Shown here one piece after another: positions 529 through 17,380 of a DNA stretch of 29,457 nucleotides. Within the stretch, counting starts at the first letter, position 1. Each line of letters opens with the position of its first letter. Origin of the DNA: a virus; the UHGV virus genome UHGV-1280367; one strand, written 5' to 3'. The position numbers and the translations under genes were made by a program. A model generated the notes under the pieces. It had not been told where the DNA came from and did no database searches. It worked only from the letters and a program-made list of their open reading frames with translations.

Positions 529-942
529 GTGTTGGTTATGTCGATGCAAATTACTAATGAGTCTTTAAATCAGTGGCTTAGCATGAGTTCTCTGGCGGCA
601 GTTATAGCAGGAGCACCTCCTGAGGTTGCTTTGGGGTCTTTGGCTGGTGCAGTAATTTTTATTACCTCTGCGGTAGAGTACCCAATGCGTCGTCGCGTAC
701 TATTGTCGATGCTTAGCTTTATCTGCGGACTTCTTTTCTACAAACCAGCAGCATCAATTCTTATCGGCATAGCCAGCCTGATCCCTACCATTACGCAGGA
801 CTCGTTTGAGAAAGGGATTGTTTTCTCTGCTGGCGCTTTCGTGTCAGCAATTGTTGCAGTGCGAATTGGCATCTGGCTCTATCACCGTTCCGATAATCCA
901 CGCGAGCTAATTCCGGGGAGAAAAGACGATGGTAACGCATGA
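529..942 (+). CDS. Multi-pass membrane protein, possible holin or antiholin partner
   Basis: 137-aa ORF with 3-4 hydrophobic helices. GTG at 529, alternative ATG at 538. Its stop overlaps the start of the next membrane-protein gene, immediately upstream of the endolysin. Confidence 0.45.
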   Translation: MLVMSMQITNESLNQWLSMSSLAAVIAGAPPEVALGSLAGAVIFITSAVEYPMRRRVLLSMLSFICGLLFYKPAASILIGIASLIPTITQDSFEKGIVFSAGAFVSAIVAVRIGIWLYHRSDNPRELIPGRKDDGNA

Positions 943-1237
943 GCTTTTTTTGCTTATCACCAATGCAGTTATTTGTACTGGCATAGCAATTCGCGTTGTC
1001 AGTTTCCGGCGTAACGGTTCGCAACACCGAAGATGGGGTGGGTGGCTTGCTTATTTCCTGATTGTTGCTGCAGCCAGTATTCCAGTTCGTGTCGTCTATG
1101 CAATCTGGTTACGCATACCAATGGCTGTGGATTTATCTGAGGTCATTATCAATGCTGCCATGCTTGCTGCGGTTATTAAAACGCGCGGTAACGTCGTGCA
1201 GATTTTTAAAATAACGAGGTCTAAACATGGAGATTAA
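929..1237 (+). CDS. Holin-like membrane protein
   Basis: 102 aa with three hydrophobic segments and a charged C-terminal tail. Its stop (1235..1237) overlaps the first endolysin start codon (atggagattaa), the usual holin-endolysin coupling. Confidence 0.55.
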   Translation: MVTHELFLLITNAVICTGIAIRVVSFRRNGSQHRRWGGWLAYFLIVAAASIPVRVVYAIWLRIPMAVDLSEVIINAAMLAAVIKTRGNVVQIFKITRSKHGD

Positions 1238-1714
1238 ACAATTCCAGCGAGCTGCTGGTATTAGCGAGGCGCTGGCCGCACGCTGGTTCTCGCATATAAC
1301 TTCTGCGATGAAAGAGTTTGGTATCAGCAAAGCAGAAGATCAGGCAATGTTTATTGCTCAGGTCGGGCATGAGTCTGGTGGCTTGCTTATTTCCTGATTG
1401 TTGCTGCAGCCAGTATTCCAGTTCGTGTCGTCTATGCAATCTGGTTACGCATACCAATGGCTGTGGATTTATCTGAGGTCATTATCAATGCTGCCATGCT
1501 TGCTGCGGTTATTAAAACGCGCGGTAACGTCGTGCAGATTTTTAAAATAACGAGGTCTAAACATGGAGATTAAACAATTCCAGCGAGCTGCTGGTATTAG
1601 CGAGGCGCTGGCCGCACGCTGGTTCTCGCATATAACTTCTGCGATGAAAGAGTTTGGTATCAGCAAAGCAGAAGATCAGGCAATGTTTATTGCTCAGGTC
1701 GGGCATGAGTCTGG
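1041..1714. repeat. Perfect tandem duplication, 2 x 336 bp (1041..1376 and 1377..1712, identity extending two further bases to 1378/1714)
   Basis: Base-by-base comparison shows the two copies are identical. The six-frame track also shows identical antisense ORFs at 1133..1330 and 1469..1666. The unit covers the holin 3' two-thirds plus the first 50 codons of the endolysin. Confidence 0.95.
1227..1397 (+). pseudogene. Truncated 5' copy of the endolysin gene created by the duplication (56 codons then stop)
   Basis: ATG at 1227 gives MEIKQ...AQVGHESGG, identical to the first 52 residues of the full endolysin, then crosses the duplication junction out of frame (LLIS, stop at 1395..1397). Confidence 0.55.
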
Positions 1715-2192
1715 GGGCTTCACCCGGTTGCAGGAAAATTTCAACTACAGCGTCACCGGACTGGCTAACTTCGTTCGGGCTGGGCGTCTTACCCATGGAC
1801 AGGCTAATGCACTGGGTCGCCGTGCTGGTGAACCACCATTGCCACTCGAGCGCCAGCGCGCGATCGCAAATCTGGTGTACAGCAAACGCATGGGGAACGG
1901 TGCTCCCGGCGATGGCTGGAATTACCGTGGGCGCGGACTTATCCAGATTACCGGTTTGAATAACTATCGTGATTGCGGAAACGGTCTGAAGGTTGACCTG
2001 CTGGAGAGCCCTGAACTGCTGGCGCAGGACGAATATGCGGCTCGTAGCGCGGCGTGGTTCTTCGCCAGCAAAGGATGTATGAAGTATACCGGCGATATTG
2101 CACGTGTAACTCTGATTATCAATGGTGGCCGGAACGGCATCGACGACCGGCGCGCGCGATACATCAATGCCAGTAAGGTGCTGGCGGTATGA
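1563..2192 (+). CDS. Endolysin, glycoside hydrolase family 19 (chitinase-like) type
   Basis: 209 aa; the block [13 protein letters not shown]...GRGLIQITG...AAWFF is recognisable as GH19-type phage endolysin (recognition by eye). Start overlaps the second holin-tail copy; stop overlaps the Rz start (atga). Confidence 0.8.
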
Positions 2193-2686
2193 TCCTGACA
2201 TTCGTAAAAGCATATTGGAAACAGCTGCTTATCGTGTTGATGCTTGCTGCTCTGTTCATCGTCGGAGTGGTTGCCTGGAATATACACGGCAGCCGCCAGT
2301 ATGATGCCGGGTATGCGCAGGCACAGGAAGATCAGAAACAGGCTGATGATAAGGCCAGGTCACAACGTGATCAGGAGAAAACACAAATTGAACGTGAAGC
2401 ACAGTCCCGTATCGATGTGGCGCGTGTTGATGCTGAGCATGCTAATGCCGCTGCTGACAGCCTGCGCGCCGAGCTTGACAAAACCAAGCGACTCGCCGAA
2501 CACTATACCGGATCTTTCCCCACTGGCACGCCAGCCAGCAAGGTCATCGGTGTGCTCGCCGACATGCTTGAAGAAAGCAATCGAGTTTACAACGCAACAG
2601 CAGCTGAGGCTGAAAAGTATCGGATTGCAGGAGAATCCTGCGAACAGCAATACGATTCACTGAAGAAGCAAAAATCGTGGCACTGA
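2189..2686 (+). CDS. Rz: i-spanin (Rz-like)
   Basis: 165 aa with an N-terminal transmembrane helix followed by a charged coiled-coil-like region. Directly follows the endolysin with an ATGA overlap. Confidence 0.75.
2415..2663 (+). CDS. Rz1: o-spanin (Rz1-like lipoprotein) embedded in the +1 frame of Rz
   Basis: Internal ATG at 2415 gives [17 protein letters not shown]..., a signal peptide with lipobox LTAC followed by a Pro-rich mature part. Wholly embedded in Rz as in lambda. Alternative starts at 2430, 2439 and 2445. Confidence 0.7.
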   Translation: MWRVLMLSMLMPLLTACAPSLTKPSDSPNTIPDLSPLARQPARSSVCSPTCLKKAIEFTTQQQLRLKSIGLQENPANSNTIH

Positions 2687-2836
2687 TTTCCGGTGACGGT
2701 ATATAAAACGGTACAGTGAAAATCAGGTTGCAGAAAATTGTTATCAGTCAATTGGTTATGTATGTCGTAAATAATTGAGTGGGAATGATTAACAGCTAAC
2801 TCATAGCAACTCATTCCTATTCAGATACTAATTTAA

Positions 2837-2866
2837 CCCTCTGTTTTTACAGAGGGTTTTTTGTTT
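2837..2866 (+). terminator. Rho-independent terminator after the lysis cassette
   Basis: Hairpin ccctctgt / acagaggg followed by ttttttgttttt. Confidence 0.7.
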
Positions 2867-2924
2867 TTATGTATTCATTTCTATTCACTCTACACCATAT
2901 TTTTCGGCGGTACAGGTGACGGTA

Positions 2925-2939
2925 TTACCTTAAAGGTAT
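2925..2939. promoter_or_regulatory. Operator-like palindrome TTACC-ttaaa-GGTAT upstream of int
   Basis: A copy of the 15-bp TTACC-N5-GGTAA motif that recurs across the window, 43 bp upstream of the int start. Confidence 0.4.
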
Positions 2940-2981
2940 ACTCTCATACCGTCATGAAAATGGTTTCTATACGGGTGAATT

Positions 2982-4232
2982 GTGCTTACCGATACAAAAT
3001 TAAAGAACCTCAAGCCACAGGACAAACTGTACAAAGTTTCCGATCGTGACGGGCTGTATGTAGCTGTGCTTACGTCAGGTACGGTCTCGTTTCGCTATGA
3101 CTACCGTATCAACGGTCGCCGCGAAACACTGGTAATCGGGCAGTATGGGCGTGACGGTATCAGCCTGGCAGAAGCGCGAGAAGAACTGATTGCTGCAAAG
3201 AAGCTGCTTAAAGCAGGCCAGTCGCCGGCTGCGGCTAAACGTGACGGTATCAAAAAGATTCGTGGTGCCGAGACGTTTGCGGTACATACCGACAGTTATA
3301 TGAAACACGTCATCCTGGCTGAAAGTACCCGCGCAATGAAGCAGGCAGTGATCGACCGTGACATACTTCCTGTTCTTGGCAACAAAATGATGACTGAAAT
3401 TACCACATCGATGGTTCGTGATTTGTGTGACCGGATTGTCGAACGCGGTGGTCGGGCAACAGCTGTACAGGCCAGGGAGATCATCAGCAGCGTATACCGT
3501 CACGCCAATGACCGTGGTCATGGTTTGTTTAATCCTGCGGCTGACATTAAACCTTCGTCTATCGCCATATTTAAACCACGAGAGCGAACACTGACACCAG
3601 AAGAAATTGGCCTGTTCTTCCGCACGCTGGATGCCATTGGTGCTATGGGCACTATGAAAATGGCTTTAAAGCTGGTGCTTATCACTATGGTTCGTAAAGG
3701 CGAATTCACCAACGCAACGTGGGATGAAATAGATTTTAAAAAATGGACATGGACAATTCCTTCAGACCGCATGAAGGGAAGCCGGGCGCACGTTATTTAC
3801 CTGCCTAAACAGGCTCAGGATATATTGATCGGGTTGCAGATGTGCGCTGGTGGAAGTGAATATCTGGTTCCTGGTCGTTACAATTTCCGGAAGCCATTAT
3901 CTAATGCCGCGCTGAACTCTCTGATCGACAGAACGGTGAAAATAATAAATGAAGATGGTGAGCATATTCAGGGCTTCACCGTACACGATATGCGCCGTAC
4001 AGCCAGTACGTTGTTGCATGAGGCTGGTTATCCTTCAGACTGGATTGAAAAGGCTCTGGCACATGAGCAGAAAGGTGTGCGCGCCGTATATAACAAAGCG
4101 GAATACGCCAGACAGCGCGCCTACATGTTGCAGCAGTGGGCCGATATGATCGATTCCTGGATTGACGGGGAGCATACGGATCTGATTCCGTTCTCCCCGT
4201 CGAAGTTTGAGAAGTGGATGGCGGGGGAATAA
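2982..4232 (+). CDS. int: Tyrosine integrase (P4-like, with N-terminal arm-binding domain)
   Basis: 416 aa, GTG start. The N-terminus MLTDTKLKNLKP...DGLYVAV and a C-terminal catalytic region with conserved R, H-x-x-R and Y residues fit the phage integrase family. Confidence 0.85.
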   Translation: MLTDTKLKNLKPQDKLYKVSDRDGLYVAVLTSGTVSFRYDYRINGRRETLVIGQYGRDGISLAEAREELIAAKKLLKAGQSPAAAKRDGIKKIRGAETFAVHTDSYMKHVILAESTRAMKQAVIDRDILPVLGNKMMTEITTSMVRDLCDRIVERGGRATAVQAREIISSVYRHANDRGHGLFNPAADIKPSSIAIFKPRERTLTPEEIGLFFRTLDAIGAMGTMKMALKLVLITMVRKGEFTNATWDEIDFKKWTWTIPSDRMKGSRAHVIYLPKQAQDILIGLQMCAGGSEYLVPGRYNFRKPLSNAALNSLIDRTVKIINEDGEHIQGFTVHDMRRTASTLLHEAGYPSDWIEKALAHEQKGVRAVYNKAEYARQRAYMLQQWADMIDSWIDGEHTDLIPFSPSKFEKWMAGE

Positions 4233-4235
4233 CGT

Positions 4236-4430
4236 TTAATTATTCTGCTGATTTTCTTCCATCTCGGCTTCTGCTGCCAGTGATTCAATTTTATCTGTGA
4301 ATATTGCTGACAGTGTTGCAAATTCAGCATCAGTGACAGCGGGAATTGGAACAAACCTGATCCCGCTGTGTGCAAGCATGTTTGCAGTTTCAAGGCATTT
4401 TCTTAAATCTGCTGGTGATGCCCTGTTCAT
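4236..4430 (-). CDS. Small hypothetical protein (64 aa), translationally coupled to the methyltransferase
   Basis: Internal ATG at 4430 of ORF 4236..4550 overlaps the methyltransferase stop (ATGA). Acidic C-terminus. It converges on the int stop with a 3-bp gap. Confidence 0.4.
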   Translation of the reverse strand: MNRASPADLRKCLETANMLAHSGIRFVPIPAVTDAEFATLSAIFTDKIESLAAEAEMEENQQNN

Positions 4431-5077
4431 GCTGCACGCTCCCGCCCCTGGTTGTCTGTTGGTGACAGCGGAGTATTGCTGAATGCATTTGTTAATCTGG
4501 CAATATCCAACGCGTATCCAGGGTGTAGTTGCACTGCCGGGTCTTCGCACTGATTACCCCAAACATCGAAACCATGAGACGACTGGCGGGCGAACAGTTC
4601 AATGCGAGAAACATCGCCTAACAATTGCACAAGTTTTTCACGAACGATATCTGGTTTTCTTGAATGCTCAAGCCGCGGTGCGGTAAATGACTGAACGATC
4701 CCTGCATTAATGCGCGTAGGTAGTTTTCCCTTTACCGCAAACAGGCAATCTTCACTATTGGCGCGAGTCATGTGCCCCATACCCATAACCAGTTTATCTG
4801 GTTGTCGACTACCACATTTTATCCACGTGAAGCCCTTCATGGTCATCAGACGGAATCCCCAGGATTCAACAACTTTTAGTGCTTCGAGTGGTTGTGTTGG
4901 CACCCACCACATGGCCAACAGACAGTTTTCATCGGCCAAATCCCACACAGGAAGGCGGCAGATATCCAGCACACTCATAACCGGATATTTAAAACCGGCA
5001 CCGCGATTACCATCTGCGGCTTTGTCCCGGTATACCCAGGGTGGATCTGCATAGATTAGTGTGTATTTCTTAGTCAT
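4427..5077 (-). CDS. MT-A70 family N6-adenine DNA methyltransferase
   Basis: 216 aa. N-terminal YADPPW catalytic motif and overall pattern typical of phage orphan Dam-like methylases. Confidence 0.75.
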   Translation of the reverse strand: MTKKYTLIYADPPWVYRDKAADGNRGAGFKYPVMSVLDICRLPVWDLADENCLLAMWWVPTQPLEALKVVESWGFRLMTMKGFTWIKCGSRQPDKLVMGMGHMTRANSEDCLFAVKGKLPTRINAGIVQSFTAPRLEHSRKPDIVREKLVQLLGDVSRIELFARQSSHGFDVWGNQCEDPAVQLHPGYALDIARLTNAFSNTPLSPTDNQGRERAA

Positions 5078-5369
5078 AAACCACCCCGCAACATCCTATG
5101 CCGCTATAGTCGCCACGGCGAAGGCCGTTACCTTTTGTGATACATTGGTCCCTGCGAACCGCGATCCTTGCACGCTCAACATCACCAGAAGCAACATCCA
5201 TACACTGAAGCCAAAGGTGGGCGGCAATGCGGAACTGCCCTTTTTTCTCTCTTTCAATCGCGCGTTTTTCGATCTCTATCGCCGCAGGAGTAACGGCAAC
5301 AACCTTTGAAGGGCTGCGCATTGAAACCTTGTTCATGTGATATTTTTCAAGTCGGCTTAACTTTCTCAC
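5070..5369 (-). CDS. Hypothetical protein
   Basis: ORF overlapping the methyltransferase start by 8 nt; start is uncertain (GTG at 5369 or ATG at 5336). No recognisable motif. Confidence 0.35.
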   Translation of the reverse strand: MRKLSRLEKYHMNKVSMRSPSKVVAVTPAAIEIEKRAIEREKKGQFRIAAHLWLQCMDVASGDVERARIAVRRDQCITKGNGLRRGDYSGIGCCGVVYD

Positions 5370-5478
5370 TTAATCCAACCCTCTCTGAAAATTAATGCCA
5401 GCAGATAAAGCCATGCAGAAACAGAGGCCAGGAATAAGTACCATCCTGACCATTTGCTCCAGTGCCTTAGCAGCACAC

Positions 5479-5727
5479 TCATGCCGCGTTGCTCACGGGA
5501 CGATATACACGTTGCTGAACAGGAGGTTTTTTACCCTGGAACTCTGCCGGGCTTGCTGCCTGACGTTCATCAAGCCAACGCTCAACTTCATCACGGTTCC
5601 ATGCGCAGCGTTTATCGGTGATATACCAGCGTTTAGGAAATTCCCCTGCGCGCTCCATACGGTCGATAGTGCTCCATGACAGTGGCACCACCGCCATGAG
5701 TTCCTTCTTACCTAATGCACCTTTCAT
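5479..5727 (-). CDS. AlpA-family DNA-binding protein (putative excisionase or regulator)
   Basis: 82 aa; the segment LSWSTIDRMERAGEFPKRWYITDKRCAWNRDEVERWL matches the AlpA/Xis-like helix-turn-helix pattern. Confidence 0.65.
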   Translation of the reverse strand: MKGALGKKELMAVVPLSWSTIDRMERAGEFPKRWYITDKRCAWNRDEVERWLDERQAASPAEFQGKKPPVQQRVYRPVSNAA

Positions 5728-5776: not shown

Positions 5777-6799
5777 TTACTCGAATTCTGGACGCATATC
5801 GTTAAGCGTCATCATGAATTTTTGGTGATATTCATCACCGAGCTTGTCAGCCATGGTGTTAATTTCATTTTCAGCGCGCTTGAACATCGTTTTTGCATCT
5901 TCAGCAGATGGATCCAGGCTATTAAGTATCGCGATGATATATTCTCGAGCTTCTTCTCGTTCTGAATCTGAAATTGGCGATAGGTGTTGACGCTCATCGT
6001 CAACTACGGAATATTCACCAGTGATAACAGCTGCGTTATCTTGGCTAAGTCCAGCTTCAGCGCGCTCATCCATAACAACAGCCTTCTGCATTTCAATAGA
6101 AACAGGAAGATATTTGAACAGTCGGCGAATTACTGTTTTTTTAGCCATCTCATCGAAGTGATCAACCCATGGGCCACTGCTACCGGCTTTGCTCAGTGCA
6201 CGAACTTTCTCAACGTCTGCCCGGCTCATAACTTCAAATTGGACTCCGCCATCTTTCAGTCGTGCAACGGCGTAAACGTGCGTTAATTCTCCGCGGTCAC
6301 CTGTTTCGCAAGGTAAATGCTCGAGCGTTTCTTCCAGGCCGTATGAGTAGCTGAATTTGTCGTTTGTATGTACGGTACGAGCCGAGATACTCAGGATCTG
6401 CCCAGAGCGGCGGGCAAGGTCAATCATTCCGCGATAGCCGATAATCAGCTGTGCTTCTGTAGATACGGTTTCCCATCTTCCATTTACTTTCTGGCGTTTG
6501 TCGAACGGTATCAGGTAAGCGTGTCCAAGAGCTCCGCCTGGTTCAAGACCCAATTGGGCACATTGCATAATTGCCCCCAGGAAGCTGGCTTGGTCGCATG
6601 ATGCAAGTTTTGGAACCTTTCGGATCTCTGTGGTTGCTATGCGCGCCAGACGGTCTGCTGTCATGTGCTTTGGAAGTGCCAAAGCCATCTGAGCTTTAAT
6701 TTTTGGGTCTGCCAGAAGTCCGGCCAGAGTTGTTGGTTTCTCATTATGATGTGCAACTTGGTTACCGGTAGCCGCTGCCTTAAGTGCATTGATAGACAT
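5777..6799 (-). CDS. recT: RecT-family single-strand annealing recombinase
   Basis: 340 aa; blocks such as HMTADRLARIATTEIRKVP, QLIIGYRGMIDLARRSGQI, THVYAVARLKDGG.QFEVM and AKKT.IRRLFKYLPVSIE closely follow E. coli Rac RecT as I recall it. Confidence 0.85.
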   Translation of the reverse strand: MSINALKAAATGNQVAHHNEKPTTLAGLLADPKIKAQMALALPKHMTADRLARIATTEIRKVPKLASCDQASFLGAIMQCAQLGLEPGGALGHAYLIPFDKRQKVNGRWETVSTEAQLIIGYRGMIDLARRSGQILSISARTVHTNDKFSYSYGLEETLEHLPCETGDRGELTHVYAVARLKDGGVQFEVMSRADVEKVRALSKAGSSGPWVDHFDEMAKKTVIRRLFKYLPVSIEMQKAVVMDERAEAGLSQDNAAVITGEYSVVDDERQHLSPISDSEREEAREYIIAILNSLDPSAEDAKTMFKRAENEINTMADKLGDEYHQKFMMTLNDMRPEFE

Positions 6800-6808
6800 T
6801 TTTTCTCC

Positions 6809-7708
6809 TTACTTCATTCTGAAGACGCGTTGTGTCGTTGTTGTTTTGAATTTTTCGAATAACTCAGGGTGTACTGACTGGAATAGCTTCTGGTCGAATC
6901 TGTTGCTGATCTGAGATTTCCATGTGCAGAGCGGCTTTCCGTCCAGGGTCAGGACTGAGTGCTCTTGCATGTACATCTTCAGCTTCTCTTCTGATATAGC
7001 TATTTCTTCTTCCAGTGATTTTCTGCGTGACTTCATGTCTCGTAGATCGTTGAATAGTGCGAGTGCCTTTCCGTCAGCCTCGATACTTGTACCGGCATCT
7101 TTCTCAAACATCAGTGATACATCGCTTACGCTGGTAGCTTCCGGCGGGTTAAGATTTTTCACTCGGTCCCAGAAAGCGATTTCTTTTTCTAAGATCGCCT
7201 GGATAGTTTCTTCATCACGCTCAACCCGATAGATTCGGAAGTCGTCGCCACCGATAAGCACACCGAAAACGCATACCTGTTTGTTTGTAACCATCAACCC
7301 GTGCATGGCCTGGGCCGTGTAATGCACAGGAATTGCATCTGTCTGGATTTCTCCCCATTCTTTGGCTTTGAACGGACTAACTGTTTTGATCTCAATGTTC
7401 TCGCCTGACGCTGCTTCTGCATCGATCTCAGCTGCAATAAAATCGTAATCACGGTGGATATAGCGGTTTCCGCGATGAACGATTTCCATCCCTGTTTCCT
7501 CAGAAAGCAGGTCTATTACGTATGGCTCCATACGCTGGCCACGCGTGAAAACTTTCTGCTTGCTTGGGTCTACTGGTTTGACACGTGGCTGGACCTTATC
7601 CAGATAAACCTCAAGCGGGGTGCGCCATGGGCTAATTCCAAGAATCCCTGCAACATCGCTTCCTCCGATGTATTTTGTTCTATCCATGATTCCAGCGTTC
7701 CGCATCAT
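6809..7708 (-). CDS. YqaJ-like (lambda-Exo fold) recombination exonuclease
   Basis: 299 aa. N-terminal IGGSDVAGILGISPWRTPLEVY is the YqaJ hallmark. Sits immediately upstream of recT as the expected exo/annealase pair. Confidence 0.7.
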   Translation of the reverse strand: MMRNAGIMDRTKYIGGSDVAGILGISPWRTPLEVYLDKVQPRVKPVDPSKQKVFTRGQRMEPYVIDLLSEETGMEIVHRGNRYIHRDYDFIAAEIDAEAASGENIEIKTVSPFKAKEWGEIQTDAIPVHYTAQAMHGLMVTNKQVCVFGVLIGGDDFRIYRVERDEETIQAILEKEIAFWDRVKNLNPPEATSVSDVSLMFEKDAGTSIEADGKALALFNDLRDMKSRRKSLEEEIAISEEKLKMYMQEHSVLTLDGKPLCTWKSQISNRFDQKLFQSVHPELFEKFKTTTTQRVFRMK

Positions 7709-9648: not shown

Positions 9649-10464
9649 ATGAGCAGACATGCAACAGATTGGGCCTGGGAGACAGATCCAGGTAGCTCGT
9701 CATTAAAGCTCATACTGCTCTCGATGGCTGACAGAGCCGATGAATATAACCTCTGCTACCCCAGCATAGAACGCCTCGTTAAAGACACTTGCCTGAATAA
9801 AAAAACCGTGCAGGCCGGGCTTATATCGCTCATGAAAATGGGGCTTATTTCAGATACCGGAGAGAGAAAGGGAGCGACGAAAAGAGTGCGGGTTTTCTCT
9901 CTTAATATAACCAAAAACGGGAACATTAAAGGCAACCGGGAAGGGGGTAATGAACCCGAAAACGGTAATGTTACCGAAAACGGGAATATACCCAAAAACG
10001 GGATGTTGAATGATCCCAAAAACGGGATGTTGAATGATCCCAAAAACGGGATCCAGAACCAGTCATATAACCAGTCATTTAACCAAGAGAGGGAGAGCAG
10101 GACAAAAACCGGGGATTCTGTTCCTCATGACCCCGGCGCAAACAACGCCGTGATGAATAACTTTGTTCCTCCTGGTGGGCCAGGGCAATTAGGCAAATTT
10201 GTCATGCATGAACAATGGCAGCCATCAGATGACTTTCTTCGGAAAAGCTCATTGCAGGGGATCTACCTGGACAGTCTGCCAACGGCACAGGAACTTGCAG
10301 AGTTCAGAATTTACTGGATGGCTGAGGGTAAGGCATACCATCAGGCACAGTGGGAGCAGAAGCTGGCAAGGCGGCTGCAGATTAGCAGACAGAAGCAATC
10401 AACATTACCTGATAACAACGTTCCGCACTGGAACAGCCCTGAAGCGTGGGAGGATTTCTTGTGA
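9649..10464 (+). CDS. Replication initiator (lambda O-like, N-terminal HTH, DnaT-like C-terminus)
   Basis: 271 aa. The N-terminus resembles the phage replisome-organiser N-domain; the gene contains DNA iterons; it is followed by a lambda P-like gene. Confidence 0.7.
   Translation: MSRHATDWAWETDPGSSSLKLILLSMADRADEYNLCYPSIERLVKDTCLNKKTVQAGLISLMKMGLISDTGERKGATKRVRVFSLNITKNGNIKGNREGGNEPENGNVTENGNIPKNGMLNDPKNGMLNDPKNGIQNQSYNQSFNQERESRTKTGDSVPHDPGANNAVMNNFVPPGGPGQLGKFVMHEQWQPSDDFLRKSSLQGIYLDSLPTAQELAEFRIYWMAEGKAYHQAQWEQKLARRLQISRQKQSTLPDNNVPHWNSPEAWEDFL
9911..10049. repeat. Origin-like iteron array: six direct repeats of CC(A/G)AAAACGG
   Basis: Copies start at 9911, 9956, 9974, 9992, 10016 and 10040 (spacings 45, 18, 18, 24, 24 bp). 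They encode the peptide repeats PKNGMLND and lie inside the initiator gene, as in lambda ori. Confidence 0.7.
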
Positions 10465-13169: not shown

Positions 13170-13454
13170 ATGAGCAAGATTGACTATCAGGCACTGCGTG
13201 AAAAGGCAGAGAAAGCAACGTGTGGTGTGTGGTCGCTCGAATATGGAGAGGGCCGATTTGATGGTGATGATGCACTAATTCATCGCGAGGCTGCTGGGTA
13301 TATTCCCATTTGCAGAATTGAAGGAGCGCATCCAGAAAGCGGTTTCGATGAAGATTTCCAAATGGATTCGAAAGAATGCATTGACGTAATTCGTGAAGAA
13401 GTAAAGCGATGGAATGATTCCCGCGCCGCTGGTATTCGCATCAAAGGAGAGTGA
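13170..13454 (+). CDS. Ea22-like small protein
   Basis: N-terminal DYQALREKAEKATCGVW resembles the ead/Ea22-like family motif (recognition by eye). Confidence 0.45.
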   Translation: MSKIDYQALREKAEKATCGVWSLEYGEGRFDGDDALIHREAAGYIPICRIEGAHPESGFDEDFQMDSKECIDVIREEVKRWNDSRAAGIRIKGE

Positions 13455-13649: not shown

Positions 13650-14402
13650 ATGAATACTCTTACCAAAGAATGGTTACAGAACACGATTACCGGAATTGAG
13701 TCGATAATAGACGATAAATCGTTTGTATGTAGTGAAATAGCATTCGAAATAGGTGTGGTTAACAACATACTTACCGCATTTAAAATTGCACTGGCATCGC
13801 TGGCAGCAGTATCGGATGAACGGGCAGCCTATGAATTATTTATGGAGAAGCGTTTCGGGGAATCTGTAGATCGCCGCAGGGCAAAAAATGGTGATAGAGA
13901 ATACATGGCATGGGATATGGCGCTTGGCTGGATTATCTGGTGTCACCGCGCCGCCATGCTTCAGGGAGGCCAACCTGTAAACCAAACTTACAACTTGCCA
14001 GAATTAATCGAAGGCATGGAAGTTTCCATTGATGTAAGCACTTGTGATGCTGATTTAGGTAATCGCTATTTCGGCACCGTCACCGAGGCGTTAGAACTTG
14101 ATACTGCCAAGAATGGTTACATCCTCCTGGTTCAGGACGCAGAGCCAAACTTCGATGTAAATGGCAACTCTCCGGCAACTCCGGATAGTTGGATAAGCTG
14201 TAGTGAGCGAATGCCGGAAGACACCAAAATGTTACTGGCATTTAGTCAAGGTGAAATCGTGGCCGCATATTGGAACTGGGTTGTAAATCCAATTGATTAC
14301 AAAAAATACAGAGCTTTCACGTATTTATCAGGAAATATCCTAGATGACGTAACCCACTGGATGCCGCTGCCAGAACCGCCGCAGGAGGTTAACCGTGGCT
14401 AA
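13650..14402 (+). CDS. DUF551-domain protein
   Basis: C-terminal ...SERMPED...THWMPLPEPP is the characteristic DUF551 ending (recognition by eye). Confidence 0.55.
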   Translation: MNTLTKEWLQNTITGIESIIDDKSFVCSEIAFEIGVVNNILTAFKIALASLAAVSDERAAYELFMEKRFGESVDRRRAKNGDREYMAWDMALGWIIWCHRAAMLQGGQPVNQTYNLPELIEGMEVSIDVSTCDADLGNRYFGTVTEALELDTAKNGYILLVQDAEPNFDVNGNSPATPDSWISCSERMPEDTKMLLAFSQGEIVAAYWNWVVNPIDYKKYRAFTYLSGNILDDVTHWMPLPEPPQEVNRG

Positions 14403-15024: not shown

Positions 15025-15237
15025 ATGCCAAAAATACGCTACGACCTTGAAGATATGAGAGATAACTCAGCAAATTTTCCGAAAGAGGTTAAATTTCTCA
15101 TGCATAAGTATGGTTGCGCCAGGAGGGATATAGTTATCGACAGTCAGCACCCTTGCGGCGAGGATGTAATTTTCATTCGCGGTAAATGGGAAGGGTATCT
15201 TGACGAGAGTTTTTACGATGAATTTGATGGACTTTGA
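15025..15237 (+). CDS. Hypothetical small protein
   Basis: ATG at 15025 preceded by a GAAGGTG ribosome-binding site (the track ORF starts at a GTG at 15004). Confidence 0.35.
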   Translation: MPKIRYDLEDMRDNSANFPKEVKFLMHKYGCARRDIVIDSQHPCGEDVIFIRGKWEGYLDESFYDEFDGL

Positions 15238-15279
15238 ATACTGCCGCCAACTATGGCGGCTTTATTTTGCATGGTACTA

Positions 15280-15312
15280 TTACCACAACGGTAACTATTA
15301 CCACGGTGGTTA
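15280..15312. promoter_or_regulatory. Two operator-like palindromes immediately upstream of terS (15280..15294, 15298..15312)
   Basis: TTACC-acaac-GGTAA and the weaker variant TTACC-acggt-GGTTA, ending at the terS start codon. Confidence 0.4.
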
Positions 15313-15908
15313 TGATGCCTGCTGAACCTAAAACCTATAAACGCAAATCAACGCAATTTAAGCCACTAACAGCAATGCAGGAGGCTTATTGCCAGTCATA
15401 CATCAAAACGCCTGAAAACCAGACTCAGGCAGCGATTAACGCAGGATTCTCCCCAAATACAGCGGCAGTTAAAGCCAGTGTCATGATGCGCGATGAACGC
15501 ATTCAAAAACGGATTGCCGAGCTGATGGAAGAGCGCAACAAACGAATGCGCGTCAGTGCTGATTACGTTCTCATGCGCCTGGTGGAGATCGACCAGATGG
15601 ACGTGATCGACATCCTCAACGACGATGGGAGCCTTAAGCCAATCCGCGAGTGGCCGAAAATCTGGCGCACTACGCTTAGCGGCTTTGATCTGTCATCGAC
15701 CATCATGAACATGAACGAGGATTCGATAGAGACAATCCTCAAAAAAATTAAATGGCCTGACAAGGTGAAGAACCTCGAACTGATTGGTAAGCACGTCGAC
15801 GTCAACGCATTCAAAGAACGCCTGGATGTTAATGTGAATGTGACAATTGCTGATCGCATAGCAGCAGCCAGGAAGCGACTCAAAGAACGTCAGGATGGTA
15901 ATCAGTGA
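15312..15908 (+). CDS. terS: Terminase small subunit
   Basis: From the ATG at 15312 (MMPAEPKT...): QEAYCQSYIKTPENQTQAAINAGFSPNTAAVKASVMMRDERIQKRI is a typical small-terminase N-terminal DNA-binding region. The track's longer N-terminal extension is low-complexity. Confidence 0.7.
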   Translation: MMPAEPKTYKRKSTQFKPLTAMQEAYCQSYIKTPENQTQAAINAGFSPNTAAVKASVMMRDERIQKRIAELMEERNKRMRVSADYVLMRLVEIDQMDVIDILNDDGSLKPIREWPKIWRTTLSGFDLSSTIMNMNEDSIETILKKIKWPDKVKNLELIGKHVDVNAFKERLDVNVNVTIADRIAAARKRLKERQDGNQ

Positions 15909-17380
15909 CAGATACAGCGTTATCTCCTGAAGAGCAGTTGATCGAGGATATTGCAGGGTTCACTCACGATCCGCTTGGCTATGCTCTCTATGCGTTCCCG
16001 TGGGGGGAAGAGGGGACTGAACTGGCACATGCTACCGGCCCACGTCAATGGCAGGCTGATGCGTTCCGAGAGATACGTGATCACCTGCAGAATCCAGAGA
16101 CGCGCTATCAGCCGCTTATGCTGGCACGCGCTTCTGGTCACGGTATTGGTAAATCCGCATTTATCTCAATGCTGATCAACTGGGGCATGTCCACTTGCGA
16201 GGATTGTAAGGTCGTGGTGACCGCCAACACCGACAACCAGCTACGAACGAAGACCTGGCCGGAAATTATCAAGTGGTCAAACCTTGCTATCACGAAAGAC
16301 TGGTTTACCTGTACCGCTACCGCGATGTACAGCAATGACCCTGGGCACGACAAGCGGTGGCGAGCTGACGCAATCCCCTGGTCTGAGCACAACACTGAGG
16401 CATTCGCCGGACTACACAACGAGCGCAAACGCATCATCGTGGTATTCGATGAAGCGTCGAATATTGCCGATCTTGTGTGGGAGGTAGCAGAGGGTGCGCT
16501 GACGGACGAAGACACCGAAATCATCTGGGTGGCGTTCGGGAACCCGACGCGTAACACCGGGCGTTTCCGTGAATGTTTCCGCAAGTACAAACACCGCTGG
16601 AAGTGTGCGCAGATTGACAGCCGGACGGTGGAAGGCACTAACAAACAGCAGTTGCAGAAATGGGTTGATGACTACGGGGAAGACAGCGACTTCGTTAAAA
16701 TCCGTGTGCGCGGCATATTCCCTGATGCATCTGAATTGCAGTTTATCCCTACCGGTCTTACTGATGAGGCAATGAAACGGGTGGTAACCGCTGCGCAGGT
16801 TGCACATGCTCCGGTGATAATCGGCGTTGACCCGGCATACTCAGGCGTTGATGACGCGGTGATATACCTGCGGCAGGGGCTGCACAGTAAGGTGCTGTGG
16901 ACTGGCAACAAGACTACTGACGATCTGATTATGGCGAAGCGTATCGCTGACTTTGAAGACCAGTACCAGGCTGACGCAGTGTTCATCGACTTCGGTTACG
17001 GAACTGGTCTGAAGTCAATCGGTGACGGCTGGGGTCGTACATGGCAACTTGTTCCGTTCGGTGGCGCGTCTACTGACCCGCAGATGCTCAATAAGCGCGG
17101 GGAGATGTTCAACTCATGCAAGACATGGCTGAGGCTGGGCGGCATGCTGGATGACCAGGAAACAGCGGACGACCTGTCGGCGGCAGAGTACAAAGTTCGA
17201 GTGGACGGTAAAATCGTTATCGAACCGAAGGAAGATATCAAGGAGCGGCTTGGGCGCTCGCCGGGTAAAGGCGATGCGCTACTGCTGACGTTTGCTTTCC
17301 CTGTGTCGAAGCGTCTGCGAATTCCCGGGCAGCAGAACCAGCAAGGCAAGGCCATCACAGATTACGATCCCTATGATTAA
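15905..17380 (+). CDS. terL: Terminase large subunit
   Basis: 491 aa. Walker A-like ARASGHGIGKS and Walker B-like IIVVFDEAS, with a nuclease-like C-terminal half. GTG start overlaps the terS stop. Confidence 0.85.
   Translation: MTDTALSPEEQLIEDIAGFTHDPLGYALYAFPWGEEGTELAHATGPRQWQADAFREIRDHLQNPETRYQPLMLARASGHGIGKSAFISMLINWGMSTCEDCKVVVTANTDNQLRTKTWPEIIKWSNLAITKDWFTCTATAMYSNDPGHDKRWRADAIPWSEHNTEAFAGLHNERKRIIVVFDEASNIADLVWEVAEGALTDEDTEIIWVAFGNPTRNTGRFRECFRKYKHRWKCAQIDSRTVEGTNKQQLQKWVDDYGEDSDFVKIRVRGIFPDASELQFIPTGLTDEAMKRVVTAAQVAHAPVIIGVDPAYSGVDDAVIYLRQGLHSKVLWTGNKTTDDLIMAKRIADFEDQYQADAVFIDFGYGTGLKSIGDGWGRTWQLVPFGGASTDPQMLNKRGEMFNSCKTWLRLGGMLDDQETADDLSAAEYKVRVDGKIVIEPKEDIKERLGRSPGKGDALLLTFAFPVSKRLRIPGQQNQQGKAITDYDPYD

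Follow-up and report, generated by a model that had tools for sequence, protein, structure and literature searches.

A perfect 336-nt tandem repeat across the holin-endolysin junction of a Uetakevirus genome: a recent duplication weighed against an assembly artefact

The DNA considered here, a 29,457-nt stretch of virus genome UHGV-1280367 referred to below as the window, belongs to a phiV10/epsilon15-like temperate E. coli podophage of the genus Uetakevirus. Over most of its length it is 96-98% identical to Escherichia phages PAS61, ZX5, phiv142-3, HEMP4, TL-2011b, and phiV10. Downstream of the tailspike gene lies a lysis cassette in the order Phage_holin_8, Phage_holin_3_7, GH19 endolysin, and DUF2514 spanin, matching the Uetakevirus cassette. 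With the cassettes of epsilon15, phiV10, and SPN1S-like phages it shares two membrane proteins, a GH19 endolysin, Rz/Rz1 spanins, and an endolysin start that overlaps the holin stop. The genes of the cassette and the repeat that interrupts their usual arrangement are as follows.

538..942, + strand: first membrane protein of the cassette, 134 aa, Phage_holin_8 (PF16931, E 5.9e-11); outside the duplication
929..1237, + strand: intact holin, 102 aa, Phage_holin_3_7 (PF05449, E 2.6e-25), with three predicted membrane helices
1041..1376, + strand: copy 1 of the repeat, comprising holin codons 38-102, less the first base of codon 38, and endolysin codons 1-50
1227..1397, + strand: endolysin stub, 56 codons, comprising 52 native N-terminal residues followed by LLIS, with the stop at 1395-1397
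1377..1712, + strand: copy 2 of the repeat, with the novel junction between 1376 and 1377
1379..1573, + strand: duplicated holin tail, codons 39-102, comprising helices 2 and 3 and the C-terminal tail; start-less
1563..2192, + strand: intact endolysin, 209 aa, GH19 (PF00182)
1713..1714, + strand: shared GG, a 2-nt exact microhomology common to both breakpoints and also the right flank
2189..2686, + strand: Rz-like inner-membrane spanin, 165 aa, DUF2514 (PF10721, E 6.1e-26)
2415..2663, + strand: candidate Rz1-like outer-membrane spanin, 82 aa, in the +1 frame inside the DUF2514 gene, with a putative lipobox (LLTAC) and a proline-rich sequence

The individual proteins are ordinary members of their families. 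The first membrane protein is also called as 134 aa in sibling prophages, and the exact holin and endolysin proteins were found in 65 and 63 blocks, respectively, of a public collection. The SPN1S endolysin, whose structure is solved (PDB 4OK7), is closely homologous to that of the window (E 1.9e-114), and the counterpart of the DUF2514 gene is annotated as 'Rz-like spanin' in phiV10, epsilon15, and Tyrion. Positions 462-489, between the tailspike gene and the cassette, resemble a promoter (TTAACC, 16-nt spacer, TATAAT). The cassette region (500-2700) is 87-94% identical to relatives among complete genomes and phage records, against 96-98% for the rest of the window, and draft E. coli assemblies carry it at 100%; the lower identity is ordinary mosaicism of the lysis/tailspike module. 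Every Uetakevirus member examined has one holin-endolysin junction, whereas the window has two.

The second junction results from two back-to-back 336-nt copies on the + strand, 1041-1376 and 1377-1712, that are 100% identical. These are direct head-to-tail copies with a spacer of 0 and a single novel junction. The longest run in which every base equals the base 336 positions further on is 338 nt, so that 1041-1378 equals 1377-1714, and Tandem Repeats Finder reported 1041-1720 as 2.0 copies of period 336 with 0 indels. Repeat finding, Tandem Repeats Finder, and the exact scan therefore all uphold the perfect 336-bp tandem duplication at 1041-1714 proposed in the first-pass annotation. Chance can be excluded as its origin because the 336-nt unit is the sole repeat of at least 25 nt in the 29,457-nt window, in which no other oddities were seen.

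The open reading frame listing likewise gave exactly the anatomy first described: an intact holin, a 56-codon endolysin stub, a start-less holin tail, and an intact endolysin. The same annotation had called the duplication in-frame with a unit of 112 codons. The arithmetic stands (336 = 3 x 112), but at the junction the endolysin frame runs into the holin +1 frame and no fusion results, so 'in-frame' has no functional meaning where the differing frames of two genes are put together. A fusion protein across the junction is ruled out by these differing frames, by the stop after 4 codons, and by the lack of a slippery sequence. The stub start overlaps the holin stop in the same arrangement as the native endolysin start, and a Pfam search of the 56-codon stub returned no match. 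The holin tail (1379..1573) contains no start codon before its sole internal ATG at 1457 and has no ribosome-binding site, and no Shine-Dalgarno motif precedes that ATG. The intact endolysin keeps its own GAGG ribosome-binding site at 1552-1555, as before the native start, and begins 166 nt past the nearest upstream stop codon. Every lysis gene thus keeps one intact copy, leaving a complete, ordinary epsilon15/phiV10-type cassette whether the repeat is real or not.

All relatives examined are single-copy at the holin-endolysin junction. Among 33 phage and 538 E. coli records, every match listed falls into two pieces, with a record span about 336 nt shorter than the query. An 80-nt junction probe gave only two-piece matches about 340 nt apart in 5426 complete E. 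coli genomes, with no contiguous match to the junction in any of them. The exact junction 30-mer, GGGCATGAGTCTGGTGGCTTGCTTATTTCC, was found in none of the genome, viral, and metagenome contig collections searched and is missing from all 52 fetched loci, and 10 IMG/VR and metagenome contigs that contain a 30-mer from inside the unit carry it once each. None of the peptides that the duplication would encode, the 56-aa stub and the 38-aa and 64-aa holin-tail products, was on record in exact look-ups.

The single-copy form is known at base resolution. Deleting one copy from the window gives a sequence that matches prophages in GCA_014486175.1 and GCA_052969615.1 at 100.000% identity over 2454 nt, and eight further E. 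coli prophages differ from this one-copy version by 1-7 bases. Logan contig SRR2298102_799, which is read-derived, in excised order, and single-copy, matches the one-copy window over 9684 nt with 0 mismatches and assembles straight through both breakpoints. These 100% matches mean that the parent sequence is known exactly, that not one substitution has been gained since the event, and that the same phage circulates in single-copy form. The earlier view of the repeat as either a very recent event or an assembly artefact fits this comparison, in which single-copy relatives match at 100% and the junction turned up in nothing else that was searched. A true duplication would be expected to break a k=31 read graph at 1041 and 1685, with partial products starting at 1043 (holin) and 1686 (endolysin); neither product is on record, a result that is informative only if the source run is in the collection. 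A second Logan contig, SRR2298124_13, covers window positions 5647..1744 at 100% identity and stops 30 nt beyond the right repeat edge (1714). This end at 1744 differs from the 1685 expected of a k=31 duplication break and may reflect low coverage.

Several features downstream of the cassette bear on the form in which the genome was recovered and on the recombination functions it encodes.

2774..2790, + strand: attP core, ATTGAGTGGGAATGATT; attR-side identity stops at 2790 and attL-side identity starts at 2774
2982..4232: tyrosine integrase, downstream of the lysis cassette
5777..6799: RecT
6809..7708: YqaJ exonuclease

Because the attR-side and attL-side identities meet over 2774-2790, the order of the window is the excised one (circular or virion) and not that of a prophage. 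The core is identical to the 3′ end of E. coli guaA, covering its last codons (..IEWE stop). In sibling prophages, guaA borders the integrated phage on one side and a DUF5384 gene on the other, and ppx, ppk, and purN follow further downstream. The lysis genes, attP, and the integrase are contiguous in the window, pointing to the excised form, and a strong terminator follows attP at 2835-2858.

The breakpoints fall at holin codon 38 on the left and endolysin codon 51-52 on the right, and by inspection the left breakpoint appears to lie at the start of the second holin membrane helix. An imperfect 8-nt match on the + strand links the two sites.

1041-1048, + strand: GGTGGCTT, in the holin gene
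1713-1720, + strand: GGGGGCTT, in the endolysin gene, matching the holin site at 7/8 positions (GGKGGCTT)

The microhomology had been put at 2-5 bp; the exact component is 2 nt, and it lies inside this longer 7/8 match. Among all pairs of window sites with a spacing of 336 nt, 0.86% reach an equal or better local match score, as do 0.69% of random site pairs; these figures are discounted because the statistic was picked post hoc, with the junction already seen. The exact 2-nt homology alone is not significant. The breakpoint homology exceeds chance, contrary to the arbitrary ends of an end-overlap artefact, and is suggestive but not decisive.

The reading preferred here, with a probability of roughly 0.55, is a real and very recent tandem duplication produced by microhomology-mediated template switching or unequal exchange. 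A nascent 3′ end or a resected DNA end at GGGGGCTT (endolysin codons 51-53), arising as the phage replicates or as its concatemers recombine, would pair with the near-identical GGTGGCTT (holin codons 38-40) 336 nt upstream. The partner site could lie on a sister duplex or a concatemer, or the strand could slip along its own template; in each case the 336-nt interval would be copied twice. The RecT/YqaJ pair of the phage is a plausible helper. The 7/8 homology favours a real event because illegitimate recombination uses short homologies, which arbitrary contig ends should not show. In T4, tandem amplifications start at microhomologies, typically of 6-10 bp (PMC9391042). Packaging would not be limiting, because the genome with the extra 336 nt measures about 38.9 kb, below the sizes of phiV10 (39,104 bp) and epsilon15 (39,672 bp). 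Homologous recombination would be expected to collapse a perfect 336-nt direct repeat often, and this would account for the absence of the duplication from relatives. Against a real event, the junction has no independent support from any other sequence: it is missing from roughly 570 related records, from 52 loci, and from three contig collections.

In its workings the feature would resemble the classical tandem duplications that arise spontaneously in phage and bacterial genomes. Tandem duplications and amplifications at short homologies in phages, such as those at T4 rII, Hp17, and dmd-tifA and those of lambda, offer the closest comparison. Shared with the window are the head-to-tail repeat with one novel junction, the breakpoint homology kept once at the junction, and a parent form present in relatives (PMC9391042). 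Their units range from a few hundred bases to a few kb, and the 336-nt unit is of this kind. Unlike the typical 6-10 bp of homology in T4, the window has 2 nt of exact homology (7/8 imperfect) and only two copies, and no selective pressure is known to act on it. The feature has the sequence hallmarks of a tandem duplication and would be either a fresh instance of a well-known type of event or an assembly error.

An assembly or finishing artefact is a serious contender, falling short of even odds. If the genome is circular or circularly permuted in the reads, a linear contig, or two contigs, could have overlapped by about 336 nt and been joined, rotated, or wrapped with the overlap left untrimmed, in which case the perfect repeat would be present in no DNA molecule. 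The perfect identity of the copies and their uniqueness among all relatives are what such an error would leave behind, and the same phage is single-copy in SRR2298102. The excised or circular order of the window also makes it probable that its source was handled as a circle. Overlap-layout assemblers give read-length overlaps in a range that includes about 338 nt. Against this reading, 336-338 nt, to our knowledge, fits no common de Bruijn k value and is not a usual k-mer size. Also against an artefact, arbitrary contig ends should lack breakpoint homology, and a 7/8 match is reached by about 0.8% of random pairs; the window is free of further repeats or oddities; and the repeat is internal, 1 kb from the window start, which would require an extra rotation step if the window was simply cut from a linear record. 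Internal duplicated regions and over-extended contigs are documented as common errors in phage assemblies, and the Phage Annotation Guide cautions that a contig can come out longer than 100% of the genome and that repeats may land internally (PMC8785237). An untrimmed circular or permuted contig overlap of this kind would share with the window a perfect repeat, uniqueness to one record, and a genome handled as a circle (PMC8785237). Short breakpoint homology, the unusual k-mer length, and a repeat away from the window ends are the points of difference.

If the duplication is real, its consequences for expression can be outlined from the gene arrangement. The late transcript would lengthen by 336 nt. 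The stub would take over the start that overlaps the holin stop, and ribosomes ending the holin could re-initiate only on the stub, while the intact endolysin, 336 nt downstream, would rely on its own GAGG. The added holin tail would be untranslatable. The endolysin is a soluble enzyme that awaits holin action. No RNA structure tying the endolysin start to holin translation was found beyond shuffled controls. At most a small change in lysis would be expected, because the endolysin waits for the holin and no start-controlling RNA structure was found, and an effect on lysis timing is conceivable. The expected phenotype would be neutral or mildly deleterious, with perhaps slightly less endolysin.

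It is very unlikely that a real duplication was selected for changed lysis timing, whether by uncoupling endolysin translation from the holin, so that the intact gene would be translated independently and at another level, by doubling a weak terminator-like hairpin, or by supplying a small peptide that modulates holin triggering. Lysis timing is governed by the holin and its partners, as in the lambda S105/S107 system, which lends the idea some appeal. The stub does inherit the native start and a ribosome-binding site overlapping the holin stop, and the hairpin at 1183-1199 is duplicated at 1519-1535. The terminator-like matches barely exceed shuffle expectation, however, and RNA structure around the endolysin start is not significant (z -0.4 and 0.16). 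The duplication is present in one sequence with zero divergence and so gives no sign of persistence. The peptide acting in this way would be the N-terminal endolysin stub or a 38-aa third holin helix translated from the ATG at 1457. The holin tail is start-less and lacks a ribosome-binding site before 1457, with no Shine-Dalgarno sequence upstream of that codon. The stub holds 52 of the 209 endolysin residues and should be inactive, because in a close endolysin homologue the GH19 domain spans residues 12-208 (PMC12391199). A holin/antiholin pair arising from a second holin product was ruled out, as the holin tail has no start codon before the ATG at 1457 and no Shine-Dalgarno sequence ahead of that ATG. 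If it were true, a selected duplication would be a natural one-step route to a retuned phage lysis clock. In position, the weak terminator-like hairpin (1183-1199/1519-1535) sits just before the endolysin start.

The least credible explanation is a genuine direct terminal repeat that marks the virion DNA ends and was placed internally by circular assembly, even though the repeat length is within the range of short terminal repeats. Such repeats are sometimes left mid-record (PMC8785237), but this one is embedded in two essential lysis genes, with the terminase genes (15234..17380) about 14 kb away, and the explanation was dropped on its position and its absence from relatives, because physical ends would be conserved within the genus, yet the virion-derived records of phiV10, epsilon15, ZX5, and PAS61 are single-copy there.

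The biological weight of the repeat is small, and the finding is an ordinary one. A real event would be a fresh microhomology-mediated duplication caught before loss or divergence, in an operon that sets lysis timing. An artefact would be a quality flag for the source assembly, and the stub open reading frame and the extra 336 nt would not belong in annotations or protein databases.

Two further observations lie outside the lysis region. Positions 9946-10085, inside the open reading frame 9649..10464 of a DnaT-like replication protein, contain three short tandem arrays next to one another, with periods of 18, 24, and 12. The arrays include 2.6 perfect copies of CCCAAAAACGGGATGTTGAATGAT as reported by Tandem Repeats Finder, and they look like origin iterons inside a replication initiator gene, as in lambdoid phages. 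The window also carries a very rare allele of a 250-aa DUF551 protein (13650..14402), the only member of its 90% cluster (n = 1). The exact allele occurs only in Logan runs SRR36470062 and SRR11668377, each with a contig that matches the window at 100% and begins at window position 13172/13173; the shared start suggests a graph branch there.
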